Source: an uncultured Planctomycetota bacterium (GTDB lineage: Bacteria; Planctomycetota; B143-G9). From it: 64,000 bases of DNA. The notes beneath the pieces were generated by a model. That model was not told the DNA's origin and searched no databases. It saw only the letters and a list, made by a program, of their open reading frames with translations. How positions within the stretch are numbered: position 1 is the first letter of the stretch; each line of letters opens with the position of its first letter. The stretch is from NCBI GenBank assembly GCA_964571525.1, contig CAZNBY010000006.1, positions 13,773 to 77,772 of the forward strand, given 5' to 3'. Of the stretch, positions 21,975 to 55,114 are shown one piece after another. Position numbers and translations under genes: made by a program.

Positions 21975-23168
21975 TCACTGCGAATCGTCGGCAAGAATCA
22001 TCACCTTTATTGGCATTTGGCGATCGCGTATCGTCGCATCGCCAAGCTGGCCAGATGAATTGCATCCCCAAGCCCATACCACGCCGTTGGCATCAAGTGC
22101 AAGCGAGTACTTTCTCCCCGCGTCAATTTCGATTATGCTGCTAAGGCTCTCTATCTTGGAAGCCTCTCTATTTGGTAAAACCTGACCATTGCCTGTCTGA
22201 CCGTGCATGTTCTCACCCCATGCGAAGACAAATCCTTTTTTGTCAAGCGCAAGATAATGAGAGTCACAAGATACTTTTACGATTCCGCTCAATCCGCCAA
22301 CCTGTTGCGGTTCGCCTTTGTAAAAGGCCTTGCGCGCATCTGTGCCGTCGCCAGTTTGTGAAAGCGAATTCCATCCCAAAGCCCACACGCTGCCGTTCTT
22401 TCGTACGACCAAAGTGATATCACCAGCCGATGCAGACACAGGTTCATCAAGCTCAACCCTATACACATCGAATGGATCTGGCACAGCACCCTCAGTAATC
22501 TTGCCCAACTGCATCTGCTTGTTTTCACCCCAAACATATATGCTGCCGTTTCGGCTCAAAGCCACAACATGCCGGTTATTGCATGATACAGAGCGAACTG
22601 GACTTATCTTTCCTATTCGGGCTGGGAGATTTCTGTTGATGAAACTGCCAATGCCTATCTGCCCCTCGCTGTTTGCGCCCCATGCGTATAATGTGCCGTC
22701 GGACTTTATAGCATAAGCTGAGACCGCACCCGCGCAGATGGCGACTATCTCTGTAAGGCCCTTTACCATCACAGGTACATCTCTCTTTTCGTAAGTCGCA
22801 TCGCCAAGCTGCCCAAGGTCATTTGTACCCCACGCCCAAACGGTTCCGTCAGTCTTCAATGCAAGCGAATAGTACATGCCTGCTGAAATTGCCTTTACAT
22901 CGCTAATGGACTGCACCTGAACCGGAACAAGCGTCTTTTCACCTGCCACAACTCCCAACTGACGGTACTCATTTCCACCCCATACCCATATTCTGCCGTC
23001 GGTCTTAAGCGCAAGCGAATGATTGTATCCCGCTGCAATGGCGCAGACAACCGGTGGTTTTGTGGGGGACGGGGAAGGTTGAGGCGTGGAGTTTTCACCC
23101 GATGCGGATACAGAGATCAGAAAGGTGATAACGAATATCGCGCTGATAAACAATGTAGATTTTGTCAT
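21975..23168 (-). CDS. Secreted RCC1-repeat (beta-propeller) protein
   Basis: Signal peptide. Repeated HSLALKTDGxVWAWGxNxxGQLG blades. Confidence 0.8.
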   Translation of the reverse strand: MTKSTLFISAIFVITFLISVSASGENSTPQPSPSPTKPPVVCAIAAGYNHSLALKTDGRIWVWGGNEYRQLGVVAGEKTLVPVQVQSISDVKAISAGMYYSLALKTDGTVWAWGTNDLGQLGDATYEKRDVPVMVKGLTEIVAICAGAVSAYAIKSDGTLYAWGANSEGQIGIGSFINRNLPARIGKISPVRSVSCNNRHVVALSRNGSIYVWGENKQMQLGKITEGAVPDPFDVYRVELDEPVSASAGDITLVVRKNGSVWALGWNSLSQTGDGTDARKAFYKGEPQQVGGLSGIVKVSCDSHYLALDKKGFVFAWGENMHGQTGNGQVLPNREASKIESLSSIIEIDAGRKYSLALDANGVVWAWGCNSSGQLGDATIRDRQMPIKVMILADDSQ

Positions 23169-29938: not shown

Positions 29939-31072
29939 TCAGTCAACCAATATCCCGCCTCGGAAATCAGTATTAGGGGATACCTTCAGGAGTTCCCTGT
30001 TCTGTAAGTCAAAACCGACTTCGATTATCTTGCCAGACGCATCTTGATAGATGATCGAGTCTTCAGCTTCAAACGCAAGATCATGACTACCCATGTTATG
30101 CTTAAAGCTATGTCGGATTTCATATTTGTAATAATAATAGATGTTTTCTTCATTAAGCAGCAACAAATCACCATTATCATATTTAAATATGCATATTCGA
30201 TTATACGAAACTTCTTCTAAAGGCTCAGCATACCAACTATGAACTTCCTCGAAGGTATGGGAAAACAATTTTAATCCCTGATACTCGCGCAAAAGCACAT
30301 ATTCTGAAGATACATACAATAGTGGCCAACTATGACAGTGCGGAGCATAATAAGCGTTCCTTTTAGTAATAGAAATACTATCATCTGAGATTTGATAGAC
30401 ACTGAATACATCAGCCCTTTCAGATATAATAACGCCTAAAACAGGATTGAAGTGATATATATTAGGATCATCCTCATCCTCATCCTCATCCTCATCCTCA
30501 TGATCTATATTATACTTTGTTGGTAGTTTTTCATGCAATTTTATCGAGACCAGTTCTCCATCGTTGATATTTATTAAGTGAAGCAAATTGCTCCCAAGAC
30601 GACAATCTTCGTCAGAAAGCCAAATGTTGCCCGACTTGTCTATGCCTTCATTTCTGCAATGGCGCAGTTCGCCCGCTCGTTCTTTATCGTAGATCGTTGT
30701 GAGGCAATCAGCCCCATATTTACAGACGACATCATGTCTCTTAATACCCTTTGTTACCATATACATCACATAGGGGTGCTGGTATCTAATATCGTCGCCT
30801 TTCACCTCATACTCATTGAAGTTTTCAGGCGATGCCTTTTGCGCAAAGCGTATCTTGTTCTGCACACTTGAGTGTAATACAAGCCGATCACCTGCAACGC
30901 CAATCAACTTAAAGCTTTTGTACAAGGTTTCGGTGCAGACAGGCGGCTTTGGTGGTTCTAATGGTACAAACGGAAGCATTTGTTTACCGAGCAGAGTATA
31001 GGCATATATGCTCAGACACGCCACCGCCAGCCATATCGAGGCCTCAAGAACAACGACTGATTGTCTTCTCAC
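29939..31072 (-). CDS. Hypothetical N-terminally anchored protein with an acidic (ED)n tract
   Basis: TM anchor IWLAVACLSIYAYTLL. DHEDEDEDEDEDD encoded by a hexanucleotide repeat. Markedly AT-rich. Confidence 0.4.
   Translation of the reverse strand: MRRQSVVVLEASIWLAVACLSIYAYTLLGKQMLPFVPLEPPKPPVCTETLYKSFKLIGVAGDRLVLHSSVQNKIRFAQKASPENFNEYEVKGDDIRYQHPYVMYMVTKGIKRHDVVCKYGADCLTTIYDKERAGELRHCRNEGIDKSGNIWLSDEDCRLGSNLLHLININDGELVSIKLHEKLPTKYNIDHEDEDEDEDEDDPNIYHFNPVLGVIISERADVFSVYQISDDSISITKRNAYYAPHCHSWPLLYVSSEYVLLREYQGLKLFSHTFEEVHSWYAEPLEEVSYNRICIFKYDNGDLLLLNEENIYYYYKYEIRHSFKHNMGSHDLAFEAEDSIIYQDASGKIIEVGFDLQNRELLKVSPNTDFRGGILVD
30468..30500. repeat. In-frame hexanucleotide microsatellite (CATCCT)x5 encoding (ED)n on the minus strand
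   Basis: ggatcatcctcatcctcatcctcatcctcatcctcatga. Confidence 0.8.
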
Positions 31073-31244: not shown

Positions 31245-32756
31245 TTATCGTTTCTTTAAATCATCCGGTTTGATCAGCGTAGGCTCTTCGCCTTCGCTCT
31301 TCTTATTCTCATCTGGCACCGCTTTGCCAAGGAACTCAGGCAGTTCGAGACCGACCATCTTTGCAAGCTGATGCATTGGAGGAAGCGTACCCATCAACCT
31401 CTTTCCAAGGTTGTTCAGGCCACCTTCGCCACCACCATCCCAGACAAATACCTTTTCGATAGGCAGATCCTTGATTGCCTGAGCTTGGATGCCAGCGATA
31501 TCGGTAAGCTTTTCGATGAGCAGCAACGCCGCAGTGAGTGAAGGTTCTGAATTGCATGCCTGAACAAGCGCGCGGTATCCTGCAGCTTTAGCGTCGAGGA
31601 TAGCCTGTATGCCTCGGGCTTCGGCCTGCATTTTAAGTACAACGGCTTCAGCTTGGCCAGTTGCGATGCGAATCGCGCGTTCCTTTTCAGCATCAGCATT
31701 GATGATTGTTTTCTGCTTTTCGGCTTCTGCTGGAACAACAATTTCAGCCTTATACCGGGAGGCCTCGCGCAGTGCTCGCGCATCTTCTGCCTCTTTCTCG
31801 GCCAACTCCTGTGCAACGCGAATGGCTCCATCGGCCTTTTTCTGCGCTGAAAAACCCTTTTGACGGGCATCTTCCTCGGCAACTTTCTGATCTGCGCGAT
31901 ATGCAGCTTTCTTCGCCTCTGCTTGAGTTTCTGACTCAACAGCTTCTGCGTCAAGGCCCGCGACATTCTGACGGCGGTCCCTATCGGCTTTAGACTCGCC
32001 GATTACAGCAAGAGCATTTGCCTCAGCAACTGCCTTTCTGCGGTCGCGCTCGCGCTCAGCTACACCGGTTTTTCCGCGCTTTTCCTGTTCAGCAACATCA
32101 ACCAGAGCCTGATTTATAGCCTCAGCAGCAGCCTTTCTACCAAGAGCCTGTATATAACCACTCTCGTCCTCGATGTCCTTTATGTTAACATTGATAACAG
32201 AGAGGCCAATCTTTTCAAGCTCGTACGATACAGCTTCGTTCACCTTAAACATAAAGGCTTGGCGGTCGCGGTTAATCTCCTCGATTTGCATTGTGGCGAT
32301 AACAGCGCGCATCTGGCCGAGAATAATATCCTCAGCCTGCTTGCGTATCTCCTGCTCTTTCAGACCAAGAAGACGAATCGAGGCATTTTCGATGATTCCC
32401 GGCTCAATGCTAACTGCCGCGGTAACAGTTGTAGGAACAGAGACGCGAATGTTCTCTTGAGAAAGTGCGCTTGTAAGCTCGATTGGGACAACGAATGGCT
32501 CAAGATCAAGCCAAGCATATGACTGGATGATAGGCCACACAAATGCTGCACCTCCATGAATGCACTTTGCTGCCCCCTTCCCCGTTTTGCCGTATATAAC
32601 AAGCACCTTGTTCGAGGGGCATCGCTTGTATCTGCGCACAAGCGTTATGAAGACAACAAACGCCACAATGACGACAATGACACCAAGCAGGAACTGGATT
32701 GGCACATTGGACTCATATGCGGCTGAAAGACGCAGAAAACTAAGGTAACCACTCAT
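31245..32756 (-). CDS. Flotillin-like SPFH/band-7 protein (YqiK/FloT type)
   Basis: N-terminal TM, SPFH domain, long EA-rich coiled-coil (AEEDARQKG...EAEKQKTI...), C-terminal flotillin tail. Confidence 0.85.
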   Translation of the reverse strand: MSGYLSFLRLSAAYESNVPIQFLLGVIVVIVAFVVFITLVRRYKRCPSNKVLVIYGKTGKGAAKCIHGGAAFVWPIIQSYAWLDLEPFVVPIELTSALSQENIRVSVPTTVTAAVSIEPGIIENASIRLLGLKEQEIRKQAEDIILGQMRAVIATMQIEEINRDRQAFMFKVNEAVSYELEKIGLSVINVNIKDIEDESGYIQALGRKAAAEAINQALVDVAEQEKRGKTGVAERERDRRKAVAEANALAVIGESKADRDRRQNVAGLDAEAVESETQAEAKKAAYRADQKVAEEDARQKGFSAQKKADGAIRVAQELAEKEAEDARALREASRYKAEIVVPAEAEKQKTIINADAEKERAIRIATGQAEAVVLKMQAEARGIQAILDAKAAGYRALVQACNSEPSLTAALLLIEKLTDIAGIQAQAIKDLPIEKVFVWDGGGEGGLNNLGKRLMGTLPPMHQLAKMVGLELPEFLGKAVPDENKKSEGEEPTLIKPDDLKKR

Positions 32757-32807: not shown

Positions 32808-33413
32808 TTACAGCTTGACCACTTCGACAGTCTTGGCGTCAATTATCTTTTTGACCAAGACCTTGGTGCCTGCGGGTAGGCTTTCATTATTTGCGCTCCG
32901 TGCAGCGACACAGCATAGCCTTCCGCTCATCATGATGCGGACCTGGCCCAGTTTTCCATCCTTGATGTCCATGTACACTTCACCATGGGTGTTAAGAGAG
33001 GTCTGAATTGAAGCATTACCGGTCTCCTGCATTCTGAGAAGTTGCCAGAACAACCAGGACACAAGGACCATTGCGACAATACCCCAAAGAGCGCTGTATA
33101 GCATAGCTTTGATGTAGGAAAAATGTATTGAACCTTCGTCTGCGAGGAAAAGGAAACCGGCCCAAGAAAAAAGAAGCAGAAAGGCCACAATCGAGCGGAT
33201 TGAAAACAGCTTGAAGGCAATCATGGTGCCTTCGCCTGCATGGTCGGCAGAATCGCCAGCAGTATGCGAGGTTTCGGAAGCGTCAAAATCGGCATCTGCG
33301 GTTAGGCCAATCAAAGCCATGATGAACTGCCAAGCAAATATCAACGAGAAAAAAATCGCCAGGCAGAAGAACACCTGACGCATTAAGCTCAAGCCTTCCC
33401 AAAACTCTTGCAT
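32808..33413 (-). CDS. NfeD-like (YqiJ-type) membrane protein partner of flotillin
   Basis: Multi-TM N-terminus plus C-terminal OB-fold-like GEVYMDIKDGKLGQVRIMMSG...VLVKKIIDAKTVEVV. Lies directly upstream of the flotillin gene. Confidence 0.65.
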   Translation of the reverse strand: MQEFWEGLSLMRQVFFCLAIFFSLIFAWQFIMALIGLTADADFDASETSHTAGDSADHAGEGTMIAFKLFSIRSIVAFLLLFSWAGFLFLADEGSIHFSYIKAMLYSALWGIVAMVLVSWLFWQLLRMQETGNASIQTSLNTHGEVYMDIKDGKLGQVRIMMSGRLCCVAARSANNESLPAGTKVLVKKIIDAKTVEVVKL

Positions 33414-33635: not shown

Positions 33636-34736
33636 TTAGTCACCTTTCCCGAACAACCTTAGCAACCAGGCGAAGAATCCAGCTTTTTTAGGCCTTGATG
33701 CATCAACCTTGATTATCTGAGATTCACCCGTTACTGCGCGACGGCAGTAGATTGAGAAGCGACCAAGAAGTATCTCGTCTCCGGGTCGCACCATGCGCCC
33801 CGTTACTACCTTCTCAAGATTCACATAAACGCCTGATGCTGTGCCCATGTCGTCTATTAAAAGGCTGGTGCCGTCGAACGAAATTCTCGCGTGCTGGGGG
33901 GATACTCCGTCATCTTCGATGACAACATCGCAGTTTTTATCTTTGCCAAGCGTTACGGTGCCGTATGGAAGCTCGAATTTTCGCTCAGCGCCTTTTATAT
34001 TGAAGCACAGAACATAAGGAGACTTGCGGGTGTCGGTGTTCTTTTTAGCTGCAACCGGTGGAGCGGTGGGAGGTGGTGGAGGAGAGGAAGCTCTTCTTGC
34101 GTTCTCAACCTGCTGCATCATCTCAGACATGTCAATAAATGATGTTGAGCCTGAATCGGGTTGTTGAAGCTCGGGTGGAAGCTCCTTTTCTTCGTGCTGC
34201 GACAGGTCGGCTTTGTCCTGCTGGGTTACGATGTTTCGCATGTCAACATATTCTGTTGACGGTGCTTTTTGCTCGGGGGGCTTTCCACCGAACAATTTGC
34301 CCATATCAACATATTCTGTTGAGGGGGCTGATTTTTTGGCCTGAGGAGCCGACGAAACTGCAGCATTCATATCAATGAATGCTGTTGCCTCACTTGCGTC
34401 AACATCATCAGGTGCGGATTGCGGTTGAACCTGCACTGGTGCTGCAGTCGGAGCGACGAACAGAAATTCTGCTTCGCCAACGCGAATCTTCTCACCGCCT
34501 TTAAGCTCGCGAGTGATAATCTGTTCGCCGTTCACATTCGTGCCATTTGCCGAGCCAAGGTCTTTGACAATGACCTTACCGATTTGCACGACGATTTCAG
34601 CATGATGACGAGACATGCCAGATTGCTTGATGACAAGGTTGTTGTCATCTGACCTGCCGATAGAAAGTCGGGTGGTGAACTTGATAACCCGGCCCTCAAA
34701 ACCGGCACTGATACCGATGAGTTTGTACTCTTCCAT
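33636..34736 (-). CDS. Dual FHA-domain protein with internal [ST]x[YF][VI]DM repeat region
   Basis: N-terminal FHA (GRSDDNNLVI...SRHHAEI...DLGSANGTNVNGE). C-terminal FHA (GKDKNCDVVI...SPQHARI...DMGTASGVYVN). Four TEYVDM/FIDM motifs lie between them. Confidence 0.8.
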   Translation of the reverse strand: MEEYKLIGISAGFEGRVIKFTTRLSIGRSDDNNLVIKQSGMSRHHAEIVVQIGKVIVKDLGSANGTNVNGEQIITRELKGGEKIRVGEAEFLFVAPTAAPVQVQPQSAPDDVDASEATAFIDMNAAVSSAPQAKKSAPSTEYVDMGKLFGGKPPEQKAPSTEYVDMRNIVTQQDKADLSQHEEKELPPELQQPDSGSTSFIDMSEMMQQVENARRASSPPPPPTAPPVAAKKNTDTRKSPYVLCFNIKGAERKFELPYGTVTLGKDKNCDVVIEDDGVSPQHARISFDGTSLLIDDMGTASGVYVNLEKVVTGRMVRPGDEILLGRFSIYCRRAVTGESQIIKVDASRPKKAGFFAWLLRLFGKGD

Positions 34737-34839
34737 CCAGACTCCCGTTTGGTATATTGTTGCACAAAATGCTGAGATGTCAAGCAGACCGATTTGAATT
34801 GTTCTGGAAAGCCGTTAGAATGGGCTTTCGGGAGGTTTT

Positions 34840-35979
34840 ATGGATTTCGTTACAACGCTTTTAGAGCGCATAGAAAATGCACTTGAAACGCTTGTTGTCG
34901 GCGTACCAGTATGGCGTTTTGTGCTTGCCGCACTTATAATCACGGTTGCATTGATCGCCCGCAGACTAATTGCGACGCTGCTAAGCAAGCTGATGTCCAA
35001 CTTCGCCGCAAAGACAGACACAAATCTTGACGATTACATTCTCGAGGCTGCCTATCGCCCAATGCAGTGGGCAATCGTGGTCATTGGTACAGAGATCGCG
35101 GTTCTTACTTTCCCGTGGCTGACAATCGCGGGTTCTGAAGAAGCCCATGTTGCGCTCGAGAAGAGCTTTATGAACATATTCGCGCTGTTCTATATATGGA
35201 TAGGCGCGTTTTTCTTATGGCAGCTTGTCGAGAAACTTGGTCTTCTGTTCTTAGAGAAGCGCACGGAGGAGGAAAAAAAGACCAACATCTCGATTGTCGT
35301 TGTTACGATGCGGAAGTTCTTAAGGATTCTGATCATTGTGATCGCCGCTGCAATGACACTCGAACGGCTTGGGCAGGACATAAAGATGATCCTCGCCTCA
35401 TTCACTGTCATTTCTGCCGCCCTTGCGTTTGCGGGTCGAGATGCGATCGCGAATGTATTTGCCGCTATTGTGCTGAGCGTAGATCGTCCGTTTTCGATAG
35501 GCGATTGGGTAGTTGTCGGTGGCACAGAGGGAACAATAGAAGAGTTGGGTATGCGTTCAACAAAGATCCGTACATTTGCCAAATCTCTTGTGCATATTCC
35601 CAACAATCAACTTATGAACATGACCATAGAGAACATGTCGGCGAGGCCTATGCAGCGTGTACGGGCTAATTTCGGCATAACCTATGACAGCGACCCCGAG
35701 AAAGTCGAACAACTTGTCGCCGGTATTCGCAAGATCATCGAGTCGAATCCACGAACTTACAAAGACTACATTCAGGTCTGGTTCACAGAACTTGCGAGCG
35801 ATAATCTGTCAATAATGCTCTATTTCTTCATCGAATCGAAGGTGTGGGCCGAATTTCTTGAGGAACGCCAGCGGATTTACATTGATATTATGAAGCTTGT
35901 AAAGCGCATGGATCTCGAATTCGCCTTCCCGACCCAGACTATCTTTCTGCACGAGGATCAGAAGGAGCTTCCAAAGTAG
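34840..35979 (+). CDS. Mechanosensitive ion channel (MscS family)
   Basis: Three TMs followed by SIGDWVVVGGTEGTIEELGMRSTKIRT, the conserved MscS beta-domain. Confidence 0.85.
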   Translation: MDFVTTLLERIENALETLVVGVPVWRFVLAALIITVALIARRLIATLLSKLMSNFAAKTDTNLDDYILEAAYRPMQWAIVVIGTEIAVLTFPWLTIAGSEEAHVALEKSFMNIFALFYIWIGAFFLWQLVEKLGLLFLEKRTEEEKKTNISIVVVTMRKFLRILIIVIAAAMTLERLGQDIKMILASFTVISAALAFAGRDAIANVFAAIVLSVDRPFSIGDWVVVGGTEGTIEELGMRSTKIRTFAKSLVHIPNNQLMNMTIENMSARPMQRVRANFGITYDSDPEKVEQLVAGIRKIIESNPRTYKDYIQVWFTELASDNLSIMLYFFIESKVWAEFLEERQRIYIDIMKLVKRMDLEFAFPTQTIFLHEDQKELPK

Positions 35980-35985
35980 CGGGCG

Positions 35986-38844
35986 TCAGAATTCTGTATC
36001 GCTTTCAACCTTGGGTTCAAGCGGCAGTTTTATTGTGAATGCTGCGCCCATTCCGACCCCTTCGGAATGGGCAGTTATCGAACCGCCCATCGCCTTCATC
36101 AGATTAAAGGATGAATGGAGACCGAAACCGGAACCACCCTTGGCTTTCTTGGTGCTAAAACCGAAGCCGAACAACTGAGCACCAGTCTCTTTTGAAAAAC
36201 CAATTCCGCTGTCGGTCACCCTTATCTCAATCATGCGAGTCGTTGGGTCAAAGCTCGTCTCGACCTTGATCTCTTTGTTTTCGCTTTGGGCAGCGTCAAT
36301 TGCCTCGATTGCGTTTTTCACCACATTTACAAGAACTTGCAGCAGTTTGTTCTTTTCGACCTTAACCTCGGGGACCTGCCCGAACTGGTAAGAATGCGAT
36401 ATCTTGCGCTTTGACATGGTCTCGCGATTCATCTCAATTGCATCAAGCACAAGCTTGGAAATCTGAATTGTCTCAATTATGCCTCGGATCATCGCGAAAG
36501 TGGCATGAAGCGAGATTATTTCTGTGATGTGCGATAGCTTCTCGCGGATGAATAGAGTGTTTTCTGTAATCTTCATGCGAGATTCAGCAAGTGCTTGCAC
36601 AAGGCTGAGCAGATAGTTGTGATACCTTTCCCAATTTTGCACCAACTCCTGTGCATCCAATTCTGCGATGTAACTCAGCTTTTTGTCGAACTGCACCGAA
36701 TTGAGCATGTCAGAAGCCTCGTTGAGTCGAACTCCGACAGAATTGATCGCATTTCCGATGTTATGCAATACCTCACCCGCGACTTGTACCATGCCTGCGC
36801 TGTGAGCATATTCAATCAACTGCTGTCGCGTTTCCCTCATGTCGCGCTCATGCTCTGCAAGCAATGTCGCCGTCTCGCGGCGAATGCTGGCGATCTCATG
36901 GTGAAGGCGCGAAATTACCGATGTATCGGTAAGGAACAGATATGTCTCGCCACTTGTTTTGTCCGACCTGATGCACTTAACATCTGCGCTTCCCGAACTT
37001 CCGTCAAACCGAATAAAGCTCACAGACCCTTTCCATATTTCACTTGTGCTGGCAAGAAACTGCCGCAGTTTCTTGTCGCTCGAATCGGCGAAGCCCAAGC
37101 CACTGAATATGTTGATGCCGAAAAGCTCGCGAGGGTCTGGGTATAAAAACAGGTCTGAGGCTGCCGAGTTGCAAAAAATTATGTTGCCCGCACCGTCAAG
37201 CCGCAAAACTCCTTCGAGCAACGATTGCATCATGTCTCGGGAATATTGCCGAAAACCTTCAAGCTCTTTTGAAGAGTCATGGCGTTGAGTATCGAGCTGT
37301 GCGTTTAAGCTGAGAACGCTTTGCTTAAGATCATCCTCAAGGCTCATGTCACGAACAAGTGTGATGCGAAAGTTCTCGTATCCAATTGTAATCTGCCGTT
37401 CGATTACTCCGACTGGTATTGTGGTCTCGTCCTTTTGCACCAATAACGGGCGAAATGTGTTGAATGAGGAATCGCCGGAAATATCCTTCTCTCGTTGTTC
37501 GCGTCGAAGCAAAGAGGTAATCTTCATCGAGTTCAGCTCATCGTGACTGTATCCTGATATGCTTACGATGGCTTTGTTACACTCGACAATGGTACCGTCC
37601 TCTCGTGACAACAAATAGCCATCAGGCAATAGGTCGGTAAGCTCTGTGAGCTTTAGGATGGTGCTTCTGTATTCTGCTTCCTTTTCATCAGAATATAGCA
37701 GGCGCAGGTTGTAGTCATGAAAGTAGTTATCGAACTCGTGCCAAAGCTCATCTGCCTCTGCAGGAAGAGATGCGGGTTTAACAGCATTCTCATCACCCTG
37801 AGAAATTGTGCGCACGCTTAATGTCAATTCTGAGAAAGCGTTTCGCAACCAAGATGCATAGAAGAAAGCGAGCAAGGCAAGAAGAATGATGAATGCAAGC
37901 AACATTAGAGTCTGTACGATAGAAAAGGGAGGAACAGACGCCAAGAGCTTTGCCTGATCGAAAAAGAGCACAAGCTTAAGGTTGCCTGATTTCATCTTAT
38001 TCACGAAGGCAATGAACTCGTTAGCTTTGACCTCGACGGTTGTTCCGACCGCGTTTTCCTGTAGTAATGTCTTAAGCTTCCATTCTATCTCCTCTCGAAC
38101 CGCAGCATCGTGCTTAACCGCGCTGAAAAGGCTTGAGAACACATGTCCATCAGAATCAAGGTCAAACCAGAGCTTTTTAGATACATCGTCAATAATCAAT
38201 GCACCAGACAAGCTGGGGTAGGAATACGCGACATCGAGAATGTCCTCTGAAAGGTCTGCAAGTGACAAAACGACTCCGAGCGAATTGCTTGTTGTCGGCG
38301 ACGAAATGCGCCAAAACCCCGCAACAGCGGGCACATTTGCGCGCCAAATGAAGGGTCTTGACCAGCAGAAACCTTCCTTGTTTTCTTCGCAGTTAAGAAC
38401 ATCCCACATCACGCTCTCTTCGAATATCTCAGAATCACGAGGAGGCAAAGGGTCGGGTATTATCTTGCCCCCAAAAACCACATACACCATAAGTGTGTTG
38501 GGAAGAAGACGGTTGATCTCTCCCTTTATGGTTCGAAGTGAGTCCACTGCTCTACTAATATCAACCTGCTCCGTTGCAAGAATTGTCTGCTGAAGCTCGG
38601 TTCGATACGCCATGGTCTTAAGCAGCGTCTCATACTTGCTCACATTTGCATTGAGCTGTGAGAGAATTGCAGAATTGCAGTGAGATGCAGATTCATTTAT
38701 GCTTGAGGTAACTCGTTCGCGCTGGTACTTGATGGAGTAGATAAAGAACCCAGTCAACACGACCAGAATTGGCACGACGAGCATTATCAATGCCCGCGAA
38801 AGTATATGGCGGTGATTGAACTTAAATATTGACAAATACACCAC
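35986..38844 (-). CDS. Membrane sensor histidine kinase with periplasmic sensor region and PAS domains
   Basis: Two TMs bracketing an extracytoplasmic domain. PAS segments. H-box region HNIGNAINSV. HATPase_c G-boxes DSGIGF / GGSGFGL. Confidence 0.85.
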   Translation of the reverse strand: MVYLSIFKFNHRHILSRALIMLVVPILVVLTGFFIYSIKYQRERVTSSINESASHCNSAILSQLNANVSKYETLLKTMAYRTELQQTILATEQVDISRAVDSLRTIKGEINRLLPNTLMVYVVFGGKIIPDPLPPRDSEIFEESVMWDVLNCEENKEGFCWSRPFIWRANVPAVAGFWRISSPTTSNSLGVVLSLADLSEDILDVAYSYPSLSGALIIDDVSKKLWFDLDSDGHVFSSLFSAVKHDAAVREEIEWKLKTLLQENAVGTTVEVKANEFIAFVNKMKSGNLKLVLFFDQAKLLASVPPFSIVQTLMLLAFIILLALLAFFYASWLRNAFSELTLSVRTISQGDENAVKPASLPAEADELWHEFDNYFHDYNLRLLYSDEKEAEYRSTILKLTELTDLLPDGYLLSREDGTIVECNKAIVSISGYSHDELNSMKITSLLRREQREKDISGDSSFNTFRPLLVQKDETTIPVGVIERQITIGYENFRITLVRDMSLEDDLKQSVLSLNAQLDTQRHDSSKELEGFRQYSRDMMQSLLEGVLRLDGAGNIIFCNSAASDLFLYPDPRELFGINIFSGLGFADSSDKKLRQFLASTSEIWKGSVSFIRFDGSSGSADVKCIRSDKTSGETYLFLTDTSVISRLHHEIASIRRETATLLAEHERDMRETRQQLIEYAHSAGMVQVAGEVLHNIGNAINSVGVRLNEASDMLNSVQFDKKLSYIAELDAQELVQNWERYHNYLLSLVQALAESRMKITENTLFIREKLSHITEIISLHATFAMIRGIIETIQISKLVLDAIEMNRETMSKRKISHSYQFGQVPEVKVEKNKLLQVLVNVVKNAIEAIDAAQSENKEIKVETSFDPTTRMIEIRVTDSGIGFSKETGAQLFGFGFSTKKAKGGSGFGLHSSFNLMKAMGGSITAHSEGVGMGAAFTIKLPLEPKVESDTEF

Positions 38845-38929: not shown

Positions 38930-40183
38930 TCAAATCCAGTTTTCAAGCCATTTACGCACACGGGAACTTATTGGCGCATCCCCTTCTGCAGGAGTTGTCA
39001 TTGAATGGGCACGATGCGCGAAAGTTAGCCGCAGCAAACCTGTCAAACGGGATGATAATGGGTCTTTACGCCCTGATTTGCTGACTTCAACGCGACCGGT
39101 TCTTACTGACGACTTGAACACGCCTCTGCATAGCTCAACAAGACCAGTAACATTCGATGAATAACCGCCAAGCACAACGGAATCAATGCCAGCGATTAGG
39201 TCGCGGGATTCAAGGCTCTTGCGCACGGATTCAATAAAGCCACGATAGTGCTCATCAACAATATCCCAGATTGCACCAAGAGTGATTTTCGCAGGTGGAA
39301 ATCCCTCTGCTGCATCAAACGACACCTCAATGCCTCTTTCGAGCATAAAATCGCCACGAACATTTACTGAGGCATGGGCATCAAGTATGCATTCCGCAGT
39401 TAGATGAGATACATTGAACTCGCGCGCAATTTTGGCTACAAGCTCTTTTTGACCAAACGGAAACATAGCAGTATAGCGTGGTTTACCCTTTGAAAGCAGC
39501 ATCACATCTGTGCATCGCTCTGCGACATCAATGATCAGAGTAGTTACGGATAAGTCGGATTGCGAAAGCAATGAGATAGTGTTCGCCCAACCATCATAGA
39601 AAACTGTCTCTACTTTCCATCCAGATTTTGTTACGCTTCTAACAAGATTGTCAAATGCCTCTGTTCTGCATGTGATGATGTGAGATTCGCATTCAAGCCG
39701 TGTACCTTCAAGTCCCTCAGGATTATCGAGTCGCCTTTTGTCGTCAACCGCAAAGCTGACGGGGATCACATTAAGTACCTTTCGATCTGACGGCAGTTCA
39801 ATCTTCCCCGATGCGGCAATTGCCTTAGAAAGGTCTTCTGAGTTGATCGTTTTCGGTGAAGAGCCTAATATGACGGCACCACGCGAATTAAGACCCACCA
39901 CGGGGCCTCCGCTTAGCCCAATGGTAAGCGAAAATATCTCAGCAACTTCGGCTTTTTTAGCTGCCTCGCTGACTGATTCACGCACAGACTCGACGAATCG
40001 GGGAAAGTCTGTTGGAATGCCGTCATCAATATCGCAAGAGCGTACTGAGGCAAAGGAAAGCTGCTTGAAATCCTCGCCCTTTTGCACCGCGATTCCCGCA
40101 ATCACTCGCCCCTGCAATGGTAGCACTGCGGCCGCAATCTGAATCGTTGGTTCTTTAGTTTTTATCTCACCGTTTTCCGGCAT
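38930..40183 (-). CDS. ftsA: FtsA-like actin-fold cell division protein (divergent)
   Basis: Position after ftsQ. RLECESHIITC and VVLGGYSSNVTGLVELCRGVF correspond to the FtsA RLEVEVHLITC and IVLTGGGAQLPGL motifs. The DIGGGT phosphate-2 motif is replaced by DVAERCT. Confidence 0.55.
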   Translation of the reverse strand: MPENGEIKTKEPTIQIAAAVLPLQGRVIAGIAVQKGEDFKQLSFASVRSCDIDDGIPTDFPRFVESVRESVSEAAKKAEVAEIFSLTIGLSGGPVVGLNSRGAVILGSSPKTINSEDLSKAIAASGKIELPSDRKVLNVIPVSFAVDDKRRLDNPEGLEGTRLECESHIITCRTEAFDNLVRSVTKSGWKVETVFYDGWANTISLLSQSDLSVTTLIIDVAERCTDVMLLSKGKPRYTAMFPFGQKELVAKIAREFNVSHLTAECILDAHASVNVRGDFMLERGIEVSFDAAEGFPPAKITLGAIWDIVDEHYRGFIESVRKSLESRDLIAGIDSVVLGGYSSNVTGLVELCRGVFKSSVRTGRVEVSKSGRKDPLSSRLTGLLRLTFAHRAHSMTTPAEGDAPISSRVRKWLENWI

Positions 40184-41126
40184 CTTTGCTCCCCTTAAGG
40201 CTCAAAGTCGCATTCTCGTAAGAAAGGTCAATGTATGATATGTCGTTGATGTCCCCCACCCTCTTCAGTGCATCCTTGAGGTTCTGGAGTTTATGTGCGC
40301 TACCGGGTCTGCCGAAGGCAGATTCCTCTTCAAAATACATATCCCAGATTATTGCTCCGCCCGAAAGCAAGCGCATTGTTATCGCGGGCTTGCCCGTTGT
40401 AATGCTCTGGTTCGCAGGCGCACATTCAAAGCGTTCGACAGTGCTAAGTAGATTGATAAAGCCCTCTTTGTCGAGCATGTTATTCGTAATGTACTTCATC
40501 AAGCCGAGCGAGTCCTCCACATACTTTGTCTTCCAAATCTCTCCGCTGCGCGACGGTGGAGGTTCTTGCACACCAGTGATAGTAATAAGGTGGATGCCAA
40601 GATCGGTGTCAGGTTTAAGAGGCAGAAGCACACCCTGCCTGTCAATGATGTACTTCTTCCCTTTCCACGCCACCGCGGAAAAGGGCCTTCTTAGGCTAAG
40701 ATTTACCCATACTATATTGGGAAAACGCCTTTGAATGCTGAGAACTTTTTCAACCCAGGGATTGTCGAGGAACGCAGTGCGAAGAGTTGAGAACAGCCTA
40801 TCATCCCATATCTTCATACCTTCAACACGCCTTCCAGACGCAAGAATTGAGACGAAGTGATCGGCGGGTATATGAGGAGGACGGTATTTGGCAGAAGTTT
40901 CGAGTATGAAGGAGTTTGAACTGTTAACAGTGAACACCATCTTAGCGCAGTCACAGTTATATAGGCTGTTAGAGGAAGCCATAGAACCGGATGCGACTAT
41001 GAAAAAGATCAATAAAGAGACAAGGCCCGCCGTTTTGAGAAATGTTGGGGATAGCATAATAATAAGAAGGGTCGAGCCAAGTTTGCTCCAGAATTTGCTC
41101 GAACCGGTTTCGTTCGGTTTAGCCAT
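40167..41126 (-). CDS. ftsQ: FtsQ/DivIB-like cell division protein
   Basis: Single TM followed by POTRA-like and beta domains. Canonical position between ddl/SLT and ftsA. Start chosen at the internal Met (MAKPNET); the six-frame ORF extends to 41234. Confidence 0.5.
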   Translation of the reverse strand: MAKPNETGSSKFWSKLGSTLLIIMLSPTFLKTAGLVSLLIFFIVASGSMASSNSLYNCDCAKMVFTVNSSNSFILETSAKYRPPHIPADHFVSILASGRRVEGMKIWDDRLFSTLRTAFLDNPWVEKVLSIQRRFPNIVWVNLSLRRPFSAVAWKGKKYIIDRQGVLLPLKPDTDLGIHLITITGVQEPPPSRSGEIWKTKYVEDSLGLMKYITNNMLDKEGFINLLSTVERFECAPANQSITTGKPAITMRLLSGGAIIWDMYFEEESAFGRPGSAHKLQNLKDALKRVGDINDISYIDLSYENATLSLKGSKDAGKR

Positions 41127-41694
41127 TGTCGCGTCTCCCGTAATACTCGCGTTCTTTCTCCAAGTAACGCGAGGCGCGCTGTATGTATGTTCGAGTCTCA
41201 GCAATTGGGCAGTTTCTAACGACCTCTTCCCCATCTCTTCCTTGATTTGCAGAAAGCCAGCGGTAAACCCTTGCTGGGCCAGCGTTGTATGAAGCCATTA
41301 AAACTTGGGGCTGTGACCCAAACTGCTCTTTTAGCCAAGACAGGTAGAATGTTCCATATCGAATATTGAGATCGGGCTCTTTCAAAGCTGAAATGCTCGG
41401 AGTAGGCTCTTTGAGAAGTTTGGCTATCATCTCCGCAGTCGCTGGCATGACTTGCATCAACCCAATTGCCCCTGCCCTTGAGACTGCGGCTGGATTACCA
41501 CCGCTTTCTGCGCGTATGACAGCCATAACAAGAGCGGGTTCAACATCGTAGATATCACAGTATTTTTCAGCAATGGGACGAAGCATTTCGATGGATTGCT
41601 GGCTGCTTTCGAATAAGCCGTAAAGAAAGGCAGCGATAAGACCCAACGCAAGCGCTGATATAACTGTCGCCGCGTTTGATCTTTTCTTTCTCAT
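41119..41694 (-). CDS. Lytic transglycosylase (SLT domain), membrane anchored
   Basis: ESGGNPAAVSRAGAIGLMQVMP catalytic signature. Confidence 0.8.
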   Translation of the reverse strand: MRKKRSNAATVISALALGLIAAFLYGLFESSQQSIEMLRPIAEKYCDIYDVEPALVMAVIRAESGGNPAAVSRAGAIGLMQVMPATAEMIAKLLKEPTPSISALKEPDLNIRYGTFYLSWLKEQFGSQPQVLMASYNAGPARVYRWLSANQGRDGEEVVRNCPIAETRTYIQRASRYLEKEREYYGRRDNG

Positions 41695-41696
41695 TT

Positions 41697-42752
41697 CTAC
41701 CTTCCAAAGCCGGCTGACATGATTCTGTTAAGCTCAGACCCCGCCCTTCTGCCCTCTGGTGTGTCGCTGAATTCCGAAGTAAGTTGGGTAAGGGTTGCAG
41801 ATGCATCGCTTGCCTTTTGTAAAGCGAACTCAAGCTCATATTTGCGCCACAATATAGGTGGCTGCTTTGCATGAGGCAACCCCTCGTTTAACATGGCAAT
41901 TATGTAACGCAACTCCGTTGCTTCAAGACCACCGCTAAACGCAGTTTCAATCGCGGCCTGAAGCACAAGGCGTCTTGCTTCCCCACCACGAATAAGGCAG
42001 AAATATGCATCGAACTCCACTAAAGCATCCTTGCTGCCACACGCCTTCGCGCGATTTACGAGCCATTCAGACAAGGCTTGAGCAGACTTGACGCTCGAAT
42101 GGCGGCTTCCTGCCTCAAGCAACGCGATTCGGGCGGCATGTTCATATTCGCCATTCTCGCGCAACAAGCTGCATGCGATTGAAGCAGCACGGGAGGATTG
42201 TGGAGAAGATGGAGATTCACGGAATATCTGCTCAAGTATGGCGCAGCAACGGTCTGAATCTCCGTTATCACGATGGTGAAGAGCGATGTACATCAATGCG
42301 GCGGGTCTGCGCCACGAATTTGGGTATTTTGCCACAAATAGTTCAAGCGCGCTTAATCCGCTTTCTTCCTCACCCGCATTCATCCTTGCAAGGCCGCATT
42401 CGAATAAGGCACCAGCGGAAATTGAGGTCGAAGGAAACTCGCGAAGCACTCGTTCGAAGCATGAAATTGCCTCTTGAGGCTCCTCACGAAGATATGAGTA
42501 GTACATGCCCAGAGAATAAATCGCAAGAGGCGTATCTGGGGTGTCGAGCTGTGCGCAGGTTTTCCAGTTATCAACCTGAGAACCGCTTATTGGCTCGTTT
42601 CTTATAAAGCAGAAAGCATCGGTTGGGTATGTCAACGATTTATCTGTAAATCGCGTTTTCACCGCATCGAATGCGCGAAAATAAGCACGCTCTGCGAATA
42701 GCCCGCAGACAAATGCAATGGTGAAAAACACGACAAACAGGACTGTCTTCAT
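41697..42752 (-). CDS. Secreted TPR-repeat protein
   Basis: Signal peptide. Multiple TPR-like helical repeats (AISCFERVLREFPSTS..., AAILEQIFRESPSSP...). Confidence 0.5.
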   Translation of the reverse strand: MKTVLFVVFFTIAFVCGLFAERAYFRAFDAVKTRFTDKSLTYPTDAFCFIRNEPISGSQVDNWKTCAQLDTPDTPLAIYSLGMYYSYLREEPQEAISCFERVLREFPSTSISAGALFECGLARMNAGEEESGLSALELFVAKYPNSWRRPAALMYIALHHRDNGDSDRCCAILEQIFRESPSSPQSSRAASIACSLLRENGEYEHAARIALLEAGSRHSSVKSAQALSEWLVNRAKACGSKDALVEFDAYFCLIRGGEARRLVLQAAIETAFSGGLEATELRYIIAMLNEGLPHAKQPPILWRKYELEFALQKASDASATLTQLTSEFSDTPEGRRAGSELNRIMSAGFGR

Positions 42753-43693
42753 TTTCTTTTCGCCGCGGTTATCTTTGGCCGTAAAGCCTGATGTATCGCC
42801 ATCTCGCAGAGCTGAGGCAGCTTGATGCCGAGCTTTGACGCCGCAAGAGGTACAAGGCTATGGTCAGTCATGCCCGGCACTGTGTTCACTTCAAGCACAT
42901 AGGGGATGTCATCTTGACCAAGAATAATGTCAACACGGGCAATCCCGCTGCATTCGAGCACATTGTAGGCATCACGAGCACATTGTACCAGAGTTGATAT
43001 CTTGCGCTCGTTTAGGCCATGGTCGAACGAAAATTCAACCAAATTATCGCCGTACTTGCATTTGAAGTCGAAAATTTCATGCTTAGGTTTGATTTCGATA
43101 ACGGGCAGTGCCATGTTGTCAATAATGCCAACTGTGAATTCACGCCCCTTTATGAACTTCTCGACCAATACAACATCATCATGCAAAAAGGCGTTGCTGA
43201 GTGCTTCTTCAAATTCAACGGGATTGTGCGCAACAGAGATACCAAGCGTAGAGCCTTCACGCGAGGGCTTAACGACAAGTGGATATTCAAGAGCATTCGA
43301 ATTGACTTTCGAACTTTCGCCACTTTTCACAACAAATCCTGCGGCAACACGCAAACCAGCACGCTCGAATAGCCTTCTCGATTCTACCTTATCCATCCCC
43401 CGTTTGGATGCAAGACTTGATGAACCTGTAAATGGGATACCCCGTTTTTCCAGTATCTCTTGCAGTCTGCCATCCTCACCAAATTTTCCATGCAAGGCGA
43501 TGAAGACAATATCGCATTCGATTTCAGGCACACTGCTGACAAAACCTTCGTCAACATCAATAAGTGAAACCCGATACCCAAGGTGTTGAAGCGCCTTAGC
43601 GACATTACTACCTGTTTCAAGGGATATATTGCGTTCTGCCGATATGCCACCGTACAAAACTGCAACATGAAATCTACATCTATCGCAAGCCAT
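42749..43693 (-). CDS. ddl: D-alanine--D-alanine ligase
   Basis: VAVLYGGISAERNISLETG N-terminus and ATP-grasp motifs (EVNTVPGMT). Confidence 0.85.
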   Translation of the reverse strand: MACDRCRFHVAVLYGGISAERNISLETGSNVAKALQHLGYRVSLIDVDEGFVSSVPEIECDIVFIALHGKFGEDGRLQEILEKRGIPFTGSSSLASKRGMDKVESRRLFERAGLRVAAGFVVKSGESSKVNSNALEYPLVVKPSREGSTLGISVAHNPVEFEEALSNAFLHDDVVLVEKFIKGREFTVGIIDNMALPVIEIKPKHEIFDFKCKYGDNLVEFSFDHGLNERKISTLVQCARDAYNVLECSGIARVDIILGQDDIPYVLEVNTVPGMTDHSLVPLAASKLGIKLPQLCEMAIHQALRPKITAAKRK

Positions 43694-44579
43694 TCATCAC
43701 CTCCAGCGCATTTGCGCCGAATCCCCAAAGCTTAAGCTCAGGTTCAAGTCTTACACCGAACTTGGCAAACACGGCGATTTGGCACTCATTGATTAGTGTC
43801 ATGATGTCATCGGCATTATTGCCGTCATTAACTATGAAATTTGCGTGCTTTGGCGATATATAGGCATCGCCGCAACGCCTTCCTTTCAAGCCAGCCGCCT
43901 CGATCAGCTTACCAGCGAACAAGGGCTGGGGATTTTTGAACACCGATCCCGCAGTTCTCCCCCGCGGGTGATTGAGCCTCTTTTTAAGCACATCAAGGCA
44001 ACTTTCGCGCACGCTTACCTTATCTGTCTTCCTTAGTGCAAGCTCGCACTCAAGAATTATAAAACGCGCAAGGTTCGATCTTCTGTAACCAAAACCGCAT
44101 TTTTCGGCGGGAATACTGAGAAAACGACCGCCGTCAAAAACAGTAACGGATGTAACTACATCACTGATTGTCCCAAGTGGGGTGCCTGCATTGCCGACTA
44201 TCGCTCCACCAATTGTCCCCGGAACACCCATGCAACCTTCAAGCCCTGATAGTCCATTTCGAATGCAGCCAATCTGCAAAGCGCCCATCATAGTACCTGC
44301 GCCTGCACGAACGGTACAGCCGTCGAAGTCCAGTCGAGCAAGTGTACCTTTCAAGCATATCACCATACCGCGCACGCCTTCATTCGCGACGAGTAAATTC
44401 GTGCCTCGTCCGAGTAATAAGATTGGAAAACCATTTCTATATGCGAATTCGCAGCACTCGGCGAGCTGATCCCGGTCGTTAACCTCGGCGTAAAACCGCG
44501 CAATACCGCCTGCGTGAAAGGATGTCTTTTCAGCAAGGCTGACATTCTCAAGGATAAGATTACTCGCCGCTTCTATCAA
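43680..44579 (-). CDS. murB: UDP-N-acetylenolpyruvoylglucosamine reductase
   Basis: FAD-binding domain GRGTNLLV, GGAIVGNAG. Confidence 0.85.
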   Translation of the reverse strand: MIEAASNLILENVSLAEKTSFHAGGIARFYAEVNDRDQLAECCEFAYRNGFPILLLGRGTNLLVANEGVRGMVICLKGTLARLDFDGCTVRAGAGTMMGALQIGCIRNGLSGLEGCMGVPGTIGGAIVGNAGTPLGTISDVVTSVTVFDGGRFLSIPAEKCGFGYRRSNLARFIILECELALRKTDKVSVRESCLDVLKKRLNHPRGRTAGSVFKNPQPLFAGKLIEAAGLKGRRCGDAYISPKHANFIVNDGNNADDIMTLINECQIAVFAKFGVRLEPELKLWGFGANALEVMNGLR

Positions 44580-45960
44580 CGAAACGCTCTCCTAACTTTC
44601 TGATATCGCCAGCACCCATCGTAACTAATAAGTCACCCGGTTTGCACATTGTTTTCAGGTGCTTAAGGATCAGCTCGTTTTTAGAGATGTACTGATAGTT
44701 AGTAAAGCCCAAGTCATTAAGATGACGAGCGACAAGATATGATGTGACGCCCGTTATCGGGGTCTCGTTTGCCGAATAAATCTCTGCAAGGACAACATAA
44801 TCAGCCGCGGTTAGAGCTGTGGCAAGTTCTTTTGCCAACGCCGCTGTGCGTGTATATCGGTGAGGTTGGAAGACGATAACAAGCCGCTCAGCCTTTAGCT
44901 CACGCAGAGCTTTGATTGTCTCACGAATCTCGGTTGGATGGTGGGCATAGTCGTCAACAACGCGAATGCCACCAACTTCACCAAGTGCATCTTGCCTTCT
45001 GATGACACCACGCAGTTTTGCTGTGGATTTTGCCATGCCTTTAGGGTCAAGCCCTAACAGCGAGCATAGAGTAAGCGCGCCAACGCAATTTGACAAATTG
45101 TGTTCGCCAAGAAGCGGGCAATCGAACTCACCGATGCTTTTTCCACGAACCTCAAGCGTAAATGTGCGCTTAATGCCGTTCATTACGACATTCTTCGGAC
45201 AGGCGTCGTTGCTGCCTTTTAAGCCATAAAACACGACATCACGGTTTATCCCTTCGAGCGCAGATCGGATGTTCTGATCATCACCGCAAGCCACGATGTA
45301 CCCGCCATCCGTGTTTTCTGCATATTCCCTGAATACCGCTTTGACATGGTTTATGTCACGATAGTAATCAAGGTGCTCAAGGTCAATGTTAGTGATAATG
45401 GAGTTGTTTTGATTCAACATCAGCAGAGAGCCGTCACTTTCATCAACTTCTGAGATGAAGTACTTGCCCTTGCCAATGTGAAAACTCGCGTGCCATTCGT
45501 TGACGCGACCGCCAACCATAACAGCAGGATCGTAATCTTGATCGCTGAACAACTGCGAGACAATGTAAGTTGTGGTCGTCTTGCCGTGCGAACCAGCAAT
45601 TCCGATGCTGGTGCGTGAACGAAGCAACCGCGCAAGCATAAGCGCGCGAGGCACAATTGTTATGTTGCTTTCGCGTGCGGTAATCATCTCGAGATTATGC
45701 AGTGGAATCGCGGACGAATAAACAACGATATCTGTGTTCTTTACATGCTCTGGGCTGTGACCAACACACACTTTCACGCCTGCCTGTACACAGGTCTTTG
45801 TCGCCTCGCTTTCGCATACATCGCAACCTGATACAATCGCGCCCTCCTTATGCGCCATTATGGCAATCGAGCTCATAGATATTCCGCCGACCCCGATGAA
45901 GTGGATGCGCTTGCCTTTTATCTCAAGATTATCAACAGTGGCACCCTGCGAGAAAATCAT
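44560..45960 (-). CDS. murC: UDP-N-acetylmuramate--L-alanine ligase
   Basis: IHFIGVGGISMSSIA and GSHGKTTTT P-loop. Start at the Met immediately abutting the murG stop; the ORF extends to 46008. Confidence 0.9.
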   Translation of the reverse strand: MIFSQGATVDNLEIKGKRIHFIGVGGISMSSIAIMAHKEGAIVSGCDVCESEATKTCVQAGVKVCVGHSPEHVKNTDIVVYSSAIPLHNLEMITARESNITIVPRALMLARLLRSRTSIGIAGSHGKTTTTYIVSQLFSDQDYDPAVMVGGRVNEWHASFHIGKGKYFISEVDESDGSLLMLNQNNSIITNIDLEHLDYYRDINHVKAVFREYAENTDGGYIVACGDDQNIRSALEGINRDVVFYGLKGSNDACPKNVVMNGIKRTFTLEVRGKSIGEFDCPLLGEHNLSNCVGALTLCSLLGLDPKGMAKSTAKLRGVIRRQDALGEVGGIRVVDDYAHHPTEIRETIKALRELKAERLVIVFQPHRYTRTAALAKELATALTAADYVVLAEIYSANETPITGVTSYLVARHLNDLGFTNYQYISKNELILKHLKTMCKPGDLLVTMGAGDIRKLGERFVDRSGE

Positions 45961-48157: not shown

Positions 48158-48161
48158 GATT

Positions 48162-49271: not shown

Positions 49272-49291
49272 TTTACCCCCCGAACGCTACC

Positions 49292-50686: not shown

Positions 50687-50689
50687 AGC

Positions 50690-52135: not shown

Positions 52136-52150
52136 GTTGTTTGCCTGTTG

Positions 52151-53866: not shown

Positions 53867-53873
53867 AATTCGC

Positions 53874-54788: not shown

Positions 54789-54807
54789 AGCTACCTCCGA
54801 AATACCC

Positions 54808-55110: not shown

Positions 55111-55114
55111 TGCA

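Follow-up and report, generated by a model that had tools for sequence, protein, structure and literature searches.

Repeated threonine motifs in the linker of a planctomycetal two-FHA protein: candidate phosphothreonine ligands encoded beside an MscS-like channel

What is served by repeating one short threonine motif several times between two FHA domains of the same polypeptide? The question is raised by a gene located at 33636-34736 on the minus strand of a 64-kb stretch of DNA (64,000 nucleotides, here called the window and numbered from its first letter) from an uncultured bacterium of the Planctomycetota (GenBank assembly GCA_964571525.1, contig CAZNBY010000006.1, positions 13,773 to 77,772). 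In the reading favored here, by analogy with known FHA systems and with slightly better than even confidence, the motifs would be kinase acceptor sites and, once phosphorylated, pT-x-x-V/I ligands (pT, phosphothreonine) for the first FHA domain (FHA1), giving phosphorylation-driven self-association of the protein at the membrane. The gene and its parts are the following (aa, amino acids; ORF, open reading frame; pLDDT, predicted local distance difference test).

33636..34736, minus strand: FHA gene, 366 aa, encoding FHA1, a disordered linker, FHA2 and a C-terminal helix (ORF with ATG start, two Pfam FHA matches, orthologues)
34443..34736, minus strand: FHA1 (aa 1-98), canonical phosphothreonine-binding domain by its residues, which are kept (pLDDT 77-91 per 10-residue block)
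34032..34442, minus strand: linker (aa 99-235, about 137 residues), predicted disordered, with the four motifs (pLDDT <50 over most of its length)
34368..34385, minus strand: motif 1, TAFIDM, starting at T118 (E-[AQ]-T-A-F-I-D-M invariant in six aligned orthologues)
34302..34319, minus strand: motif 2, TEYVDM, starting at T140 (within the DNA repeat copy 34297-34329)
34239..34256, minus strand: motif 3, TEYVDM, starting at T161 (within the DNA repeat copy 34234-34266)
34128..34145, minus strand: motif 4, TSFIDM, starting at T198 (within the weak third DNA copy 34123-34155)
33732..34031, minus strand: FHA2 (aa 236-335), FHA fold with degenerate phosphopeptide-binding residues (pLDDT 84-92 per block)
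33639..33692, minus strand: C-terminal basic and hydrophobic segment (aa 349-366), RPKKAGFFAWLLRLFGKGD, a putative membrane-targeting helix (conservation, predicted helix)

Two stretches of the protein match the Pfam family PF00498 (E = 9.9e-33, 112.8 bits against a cut-off of 20.7, best stretch aa 25-87) and the related model PF16697 likewise has two matches, the better one at aa 252-328. The structure predicted by AlphaFold2 from six sequences of the family contains two confident beta-sandwich domains (aa 1-98 and 236-335, pLDDT 77-92 per 10-residue block), and Foldseek comparison with the PDB returned FHA domains only (GarA/OdhI, EmbR, DgcB, FhaA, MDC1, and YscD), the matches to these solved domains having template modeling scores of 0.8-0.9 on the target. 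The low-pLDDT stretch at aa 99-235 is read as a linker that is predicted to be disordered.

The family to which the protein belongs is tiny. A word-indexed search of 5.8 billion proteins returned five orthologue clusters (P0002-P0006) of 43-46% identity, after which the score drops from 285 bits to 84, the remaining proteins having no more than an FHA domain in common with it. Among all 1.84 billion representatives, a profile search recovered five of full length (P0001, P0003, P0004, P0104, and P0105) followed by generic multi-FHA proteins; it added two members and brought the total to eight clusters. The named carriers are all Planctomycetota or Candidatus Brocadiia metagenome-assembled genomes, a set of one genome per GTDB species contains two of them (Planctomycetota bacterium B143_G9 and Candidatus Brocadiia bacterium SO_2017_LW4_91), and no further members occur among the matches listed from a metagenome scan. 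A gammaproteobacterial protein of 28% identity (locus L010) was rejected as a member, being a three-FHA transmembrane protein that has no motif. The FHA protein scores below the cut-offs of the NCBIfam models for FhaB/FipA (NF049868, 105.9 against 125), OdhI/GarA (NF041660, 69.8 against 200), the type VI secretion protein TagH/Fha (TIGR03354, 68.7 against 120.25) and the type III secretion protein SctD/YscD (TIGR02500, 30.7 against 86), and no secretion-system genes were found near its gene in the scanned neighborhood.

The four motifs that had been noticed from the sequence alone between the FHA domains were recovered at aa 118, 140, 161, and 198, all in the linker, and the peptide then quoted, APSTEYVDMGKLFGGKPPEQKAPSTEYVDMRNIV, is an exact match in the 366-aa translation. 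The concern that such motifs might prove unconserved in orthologues was not borne out, as every orthologue has 4-7 copies, 39 in total in the eight family proteins. Position 0 is Thr in 39/39 copies, which narrows the Ser-or-Thr originally proposed for this position to Thr; position +2 is aromatic or His in all copies (F 30, Y 8, H 1), +3 is V or I in 37, +4 is Asp in 38, and +5 is Met in all 39. Outside this core, -2 is E or D in 26/39, +8 and +9 are hydrophobic in most copies and +10 is Gly in 19/39, giving the consensus [ED]-[AQS]-T-x-[FY]-[VI]-D-M-x-x-hydrophobic-hydrophobic-G. Mean conservation is 0.79 in the motif cores, 0.73 in FHA1, 0.69 in FHA2, and 0.41 in the non-motif columns of the linker. 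Because the motif is near-invariant across proteins that are 38-60% identical between lineages, while the rest of the linker is poorly conserved, the alignments indicate that it is under strong selection.

Serine equals or outnumbers threonine in the linkers, yet it occupies position 0 of the motif in 0/39 copies, and in the linker of P0003 all four Thr are motif Thr, against 17 Ser. That Thr is never replaced by Ser fits the specificity of FHA domains for phosphothreonine, as it is described in PMC10470591. In six-frame translations of 1.34 Mb (the window and 88 loci) the pattern T.[FY][VI]DM was not found outside the FHA gene family, nor is the motif present in the other FHA proteins fetched (about 240); its occurrence is far above chance. 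A literature search for the motif strings or for a pairing of FHA with MscS found nothing relevant. In the AlphaFold2 model three of the four motifs have no stable secondary structure and a low-confidence helix follows motif 4.

One of the matches from the profile search, P0185, is an unrelated 556-aa protein encoded outside the window, which has three FHA domains and, at its C-terminus, a transmembrane segment. Its linker contains three tandem units of about 27 aa, with DDITADFSL once and DDITADLDM twice, and provides another, apparently independent case of a repeated T-x-x-L-D-M sequence in an FHA linker.

The two FHA domains differ in the residues on which phosphopeptide binding depends. 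In FHA1 the canonical residues G27-R28, S42, and N64-G65 are present in 8/8 members and H45 in 7/8, the exception being P0004, of which a near-identical protein copy at locus L173 has His; its best solved relative is FHA-1 of Rv1747 (6cah, E = 8e-9). With these residues kept, FHA1 is to be regarded as a competent phosphothreonine reader. FHA2, of which the best solved relative is the FHA domain of GarA (6i2q, a KGD complex entry, E = 2.8e-8), keeps G264, S279, and H282 (G-[KRS] and S-x-x-H). Since the position of the Arg can be occupied by K, R, or S and 8/8 members have [SA]-G-V instead of N-G-T, it is unlikely to be a standard phosphothreonine reader. The original description as a dual-FHA protein thus stands as regards the two domains, which are seen by both Pfam and AlphaFold2, and the label of a dual FHA reader is doubtful; the suspicion that the domains might lack the conserved Arg, Ser, and His does not apply to FHA1 and applies to FHA2 in part.

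The motif and the intact domain suit each other. Among FHA-binding motifs pTXX(V) is listed for Rv1747 FHA-1 (PMC5549992), and the pT+3 specificity invoked by the sequence-only reading agrees with the V or I that the motif places at +3, a documented FHA preference (PMC5549992). The solved structures nearest to the FHA domains described here belong to FHA domains whose ligand is a phospho-Thr motif in the same protein. Motif conservation, an intact FHA1 and V/I at pT+3 together make self-association, or a role as a multi-site kinase substrate, the best-supported reading, for which Rv1747, GarA and DgcB are direct precedents.

The C-terminal segment points in turn to a location. The C-terminus of 8/8 members is formed by a K/R-rich stretch and, after it, GFF-x-W-L-(L/F)-x-L-F-G, and K351, G353-F354-F355, L358-L359, and F362 are invariant in six aligned orthologues. 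AlphaFold2 predicts a helix at aa 354-361, of hydrophobic to amphipathic character (hydrophobic moment 0.30-0.98), and a basic, hydrophobic C-terminal helix of this kind suggests membrane binding. The targeting helices of MinD and FtsA likewise consist of a short basic stretch and an amphipathic hydrophobic helix at the extreme C-terminus (KKGFLKRLFGG in Escherichia coli MinD), and it is from this likeness that a membrane-targeting role of the tail is inferred; beyond this segment neither protein has homology to the FHA protein.

Taken together, the protein could be a peripheral-membrane signaling scaffold, its C-terminal helix holding it at the inner face of the membrane. The invariant Thr of the motif would most likely be the target of a Hanks-type Ser/Thr kinase whose gene lies elsewhere in the genome, and phosphorylation would turn each copy into a pT-x-x-[V/I] ligand that FHA1 can bind. 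Such binding would lead to closure or auto-inhibition if it stays within one molecule, and between molecules to multivalent head-to-tail clusters on the membrane; either is to be expected of a protein with a single reader domain, 4-7 ligands and a membrane anchor. FHA2 would probably be a phospho-independent interaction domain or a spacer, and the module would most likely regulate or organize the co-inherited MscS-like channel, the adjacent PAS histidine kinase, or both.

If valency matters, copy number should be able to change. P0002 and P0004 are 94% identical, yet they have six and five motif copies, respectively, and the P0002 gene contains a 69/138-nt array; the comparison indicates that motif copy number shifts by tandem duplication, and repeat-driven change of this type is what a valency-dependent function would predict. 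Within the species of the window the number is constant: in three further metagenome assemblies of this species that contain the full gene, and whose fetched loci match the window at 99.3-100% DNA identity, the FHA gene is 1101 nt long in every case, with unchanged motif cores.

The DNA repeat in the window is less regular than it had seemed. The 17-nt cores TCAACATATTCTGTTGA do lie at 34243 and 34306, and they sit in two 33-nt copies (34234-34266 and 34297-34329) that are 85% identical at a spacing of 63 nt; a third copy at 34123-34155, which covers motif 4, is weak (61% identity). A 63-bp tandem duplication, as first described, was not detected by Tandem Repeats Finder, and in-register 63-nt units are at most 60% identical. 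A clean duplication of that length was ruled out, the likeness being confined to the 33-nt core and the spacers being unrelated, and the repeat is a conserved core within diverged units. Over the 27 nt that encode APSTEYVDM the two copies have three differences (gcc/gca, ccc/ccg, and gat/gac), all of them synonymous; as the copies differ at synonymous sites only, purifying selection on the APSTEYVDM peptide is indicated.

The codons for S-T-E-Y-V-D also form a perfect 6-bp palindrome, TCAACA...TGTTGA (34241-34261, plus strand, with a sister copy near 34304-34324), which has the appearance of a terminator-like hairpin with a T-rich run on the antisense strand. The hairpin is probably a by-product of the coding sequence.

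The genes around the FHA gene to which the argument refers are listed below.

34840..35979, plus strand: MscS-family channel, divergently transcribed partner of the FHA gene (Pfam MS_channel domains)
34756..34783, minus strand: sigma-70-like promoter of the FHA gene, TTGACA-16-AACAAT with TG (consensus scan)
35986..38844, minus strand: PAS-PAS-HATPase sensor histidine kinase (Pfam; present in all loci)
38930..40183, minus strand: FtsA, last gene of the division and cell-wall (dcw) cluster (TIGR01174, 176.6 against a cut-off of 175.85, which it just passes)
32808-33413, minus strand: membrane protein of 201 aa, called NfeD-like from its position alone (no match in Pfam or NCBIfam)
31245-32756, minus strand: flotillin-type Band_7 protein (Pfam Band_7; FloT-like match below cut-off)

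The MscS-like gene is the divergent neighbor of the FHA gene in every lineage examined. Its subfamily is equally narrow, scores falling from 374 to 262 bits after the FHA-linked members, and the nearest outgroup channel (37% identity) has neither an FHA gene nor the kinase gene beside it. An alignment of the partner channels revealed nothing convincing in the way of a conserved Thr motif, specific to them, that resembles an FHA ligand. The PAS kinases (930-950 aa) of different lineages share only 36-45% identity; Pfam finds no HisKA domain in them, and an H-box-like sequence, GMxxVA[GS]EVLHNIGNA, occurs in all five lineages. The block of kinase, MscS, and FHA genes is also found beside P0003, P0004 and its relative, and a P0104-type gene, and the order ftsA, kinase, MscS (divergent) and FHA gene holds in the P0002 group and P0105 where contigs reach that far (including loci L004 and L088). 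The kinase gene has no adjacent response regulator, and the best NCBIfam matches of its product include the Myxococcus kinases EspA and EspC; the EspA model also matches the FHA protein.

The 103-nt intergenic region between the MscS and FHA genes (34737-34839) contains back-to-back promoter-like elements conserved across five lineages with protein identities of only 36-50%. The elements facing the FHA gene, kept in all five, are CTTGAC, about 17 nt, TGnnnACAATA and then GGAGG, and that facing the MscS gene is GATTTTAC (TAAAAT on the MscS strand). On the basis of these conserved elements the FHA gene appears to be read from a promoter of its own, under joint regulation with MscS and not as part of the dcw transcript.

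The dcw cluster of the window is complete and lies on the minus strand, from mraZ to ftsA (about 38930-56751), in the order mraZ (56188-56751), rsmH, a LysM protein gene, ftsI, two Mur ligase genes, mraY, ftsW, murG, murC, murB, ddl, genes for a TPR protein and an SLT lytic transglycosylase, a 355-aa ORF and ftsA, after which come the PAS kinase gene, the MscS gene on the opposite strand and the FHA gene. The protein encoded between rsmH and ftsI (335 aa, 53874-54881, minus strand) has two LysM domains and takes the slot that is usually that of ftsL. In classical dcw clusters ftsZ is placed directly after ftsA. No tubulin/FtsZ signature was found in the window or the orthologous loci, and according to a 2025 review (PMC12673574) no planctomycete has retained ftsZ and most have lost ftsA.

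On its other side the FHA gene is separated from the downstream pair of genes by a 222-nt gap with a separate promoter-like site (33506-33477). The sequence-only reading had placed the gene next to an NfeD/flotillin pair. The flotillin half of this description is supported by the Band_7 match; the NfeD identity is not, since the 201-aa protein matches no Pfam or NCBIfam family, although an NfeD-like OB fold may be present in its C-terminal part; and the linkage is limited to this species. In other lineages the genes downstream of the FHA gene are of the TPR, Big_7, or DUF3108-like types.

Some other genes of the window are of interest in themselves. On the far side of the flotillin gene a 377-aa ORF (29939-31072, minus strand) with an acidic run, DEDEDEDEDD, has no Pfam or NCBIfam match. 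Between 59427 and 63964 (minus strand) three successive genes encode a 1065-aa protein with DUF4388, TPR, and PQQ/beta-propeller regions, a Roadblock/LC7 protein (62663-63157) and a small Ras/Arf-like GTPase (63179-63964), the latter two reminiscent of the MglA/MglB pairing. Repeat types best known from eukaryotes are represented by a 193-aa protein made entirely of ankyrin repeats (16277-16858, minus strand) and a 397-aa RCC1-repeat protein (21975-23168, minus strand).

Several observations weigh against the proposal that FHA1 reads phosphorylated motifs of its own protein. The search for Hanks-type Ser/Thr kinases or phosphatases suggested at the outset found none in the window's 64 kb and none closer than 10 kb to an orthologue, whereas Rv1747 adjoins its kinase PknF: Pfam detected no Pkinase or PP2C domain in approximately 50 scanned ORFs of the window or in the genes called in the orthologous loci, and regular expressions for HRDxKxxN, DFG...APE, and PP2C signatures had no match in the window and seven loci. 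The adjacent PAS kinase was considered as an atypical Ser/Thr kinase and rejected, its H-box (SEVLHNIGNA) being as in ordinary histidine kinases. FHA2 lacks the Asn and often the Arg, which leaves one reader domain only. AlphaFold2 gives no ordered contact of the motifs with either FHA domain (linker pLDDT <50), an absence that is expected for phospho-dependent binding and yet offers no support. Conservation, moreover, reaches +4, +5, +8, +9, and +10, and FHA binding alone is expected to need a shorter footprint; because the conserved footprint exceeds that need, a second constraint on the motif, such as kinase docking or another partner, must exist. It is here that the motifs may instead be seen as phospho-independent short linear motifs which recruit several copies of another protein (for example the cytoplasmic domain of MscS, the PAS kinase, FtsA, or some other protein of the divisome or envelope), the FHA protein being an adaptor whose FHA1 reads phosphothreonines of other proteins. 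This is a real possibility, though distinctly the less probable one: a footprint of 12-15 residues (acidic -2, D at +4, M at +5, hydrophobic +8/+9, G at +10), inheritance strictly together with a single MscS subfamily and a single histidine kinase, and the lack of a Ser/Thr kinase gene nearby all speak for it, while capping or hydrogen bonding would not readily explain a Thr that is never Ser, no further protein encoded in the window or the loci has the motif, and the lack of stable secondary structure at three of the four motifs does not favor docking. The motif could also be a phospho-ligand and a docking site simultaneously.

Binding of the unphosphorylated motifs to the degenerate FHA2 (or to FHA1), with Asp as a phosphate mimic, is unlikely. 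The relationship of FHA2 to the GarA domain makes it conceivable, since phospho-independent binding by the GarA FHA domain is a precedent (Nott et al., 2009, cited in PMC5448819), and Asp is present in 38/39 copies; but this Asp lies four residues after the Thr (+4) instead of replacing it, an invariant Thr would not be needed beside an acidic mimic, and AlphaFold2 docks no motif onto either FHA domain. Somewhat less likely again is a phosphorylation-driven multivalent condensate or polymer on the membrane that organizes division or the cell wall, or couples them to membrane tension, without FtsZ, an idea that is drawn from the reported loss of ftsZ and the position of the kinase-MscS-FHA block right after ftsA. 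The FHA protein as a component or regulator of a flotillin/NfeD membrane microdomain is very improbable: the flotillin gene and that of the small membrane protein are directly downstream on the same strand and a membrane-binding tail is plausible, but the gap and the separate promoter-like site intervene, and a functional link was rejected as the adjacency is missing in all other lineages examined. Hardly any credence can be given to a neutral low-complexity expansion without function; a copy number of 4-7 and recent tandem duplications would be in keeping with it, but at six positions the motif shows little or no variation across proteins of only 38-50% identity while the linker around them varies, and the duplicated copies differ at synonymous sites only.

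If the motifs are indeed phospho-acceptors read by FHA1, the protein would represent a compact, free-standing version of the clustering principle of Rv1747 in a phylum unrelated to Actinobacteria, with a valency tuned by repeat gain and loss (4-7), and would offer a clean model of phosphorylation-controlled multivalent assembly on bacterial membranes. Through its strict pairing with MscS and the PAS kinase at the end of a division and cell-wall cluster, in a lineage without FtsZ, the protein is a concrete candidate that could link Ser/Thr signaling, membrane mechanics and envelope growth. Should the motifs be phospho-independent docking sites, they would constitute a new short linear motif.

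Among known systems the closest is the regulatory module of Mycobacterium tuberculosis Rv1747, which also consists of an FHA domain, a disordered linker of about 100-140 residues with Thr acceptor sites (candidate sites in the present protein) and a second FHA domain, and which is also at the membrane, a location suggested here by the tail. In Rv1747 the linker residues Thr152 and Thr210 are phosphorylated by PknF, upon which the module associates within and between molecules, clusters and undergoes phase separation (PMC8339232). That module is fused to an ABC transporter and has its kinase in the same operon, whereas the protein described here is free-standing, ends at aa 366 in a short helix without an ABC domain and has no kinase nearby; it differs further in its 4-7 copies of one stereotyped motif of 12-15 residues, in an FHA2 without the Asn and often the Arg, and in its MscS-like and histidine kinase partners. 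By analogy, it resembles the Rv1747 module in its workings and is not a member of that family.

The actinobacterial GarA/OdhI proteins, which are top structural matches and in the case of GarA the best sequence match for FHA2, similarly combine an FHA domain with a Thr motif in their own unstructured extension (ETTS, N-terminal), and phosphorylation is described in PMC5448819, citing Nott et al. (2009), as switching the protein off intramolecularly. GarA, unlike the present protein, has one FHA domain and one motif of another sequence and is a soluble metabolic regulator. The same logic of self-recognition as proposed here is seen in Bdellovibrio DgcB, of which the FHA domain has been solved with its own phosphorylated tail, and in human MDC1 (6hc1, 6hc0, 3unn, and 3uot, all of them fold matches with a phospho-Thr peptide of the same protein bound); these have one site per protein, other partner domains and an unrelated biological context. 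Mycobacterial FhaB/FipA (Rv0019c) and FhaA (Rv0020c) are, like the FHA protein, encoded beside cell-wall and division genes, FhaB/FipA being its best NCBIfam match and FhaA structures being among its fold matches, but both have one FHA domain and no repeated motif, and FhaB is anchored by a transmembrane segment, not by a C-terminal helix. What is new in comparison with all of these is the free-standing architecture with a C-terminal helix, the repeat-expanded stereotyped motif, the degenerate FHA2 and the pairing with MscS and a PAS kinase after ftsA.

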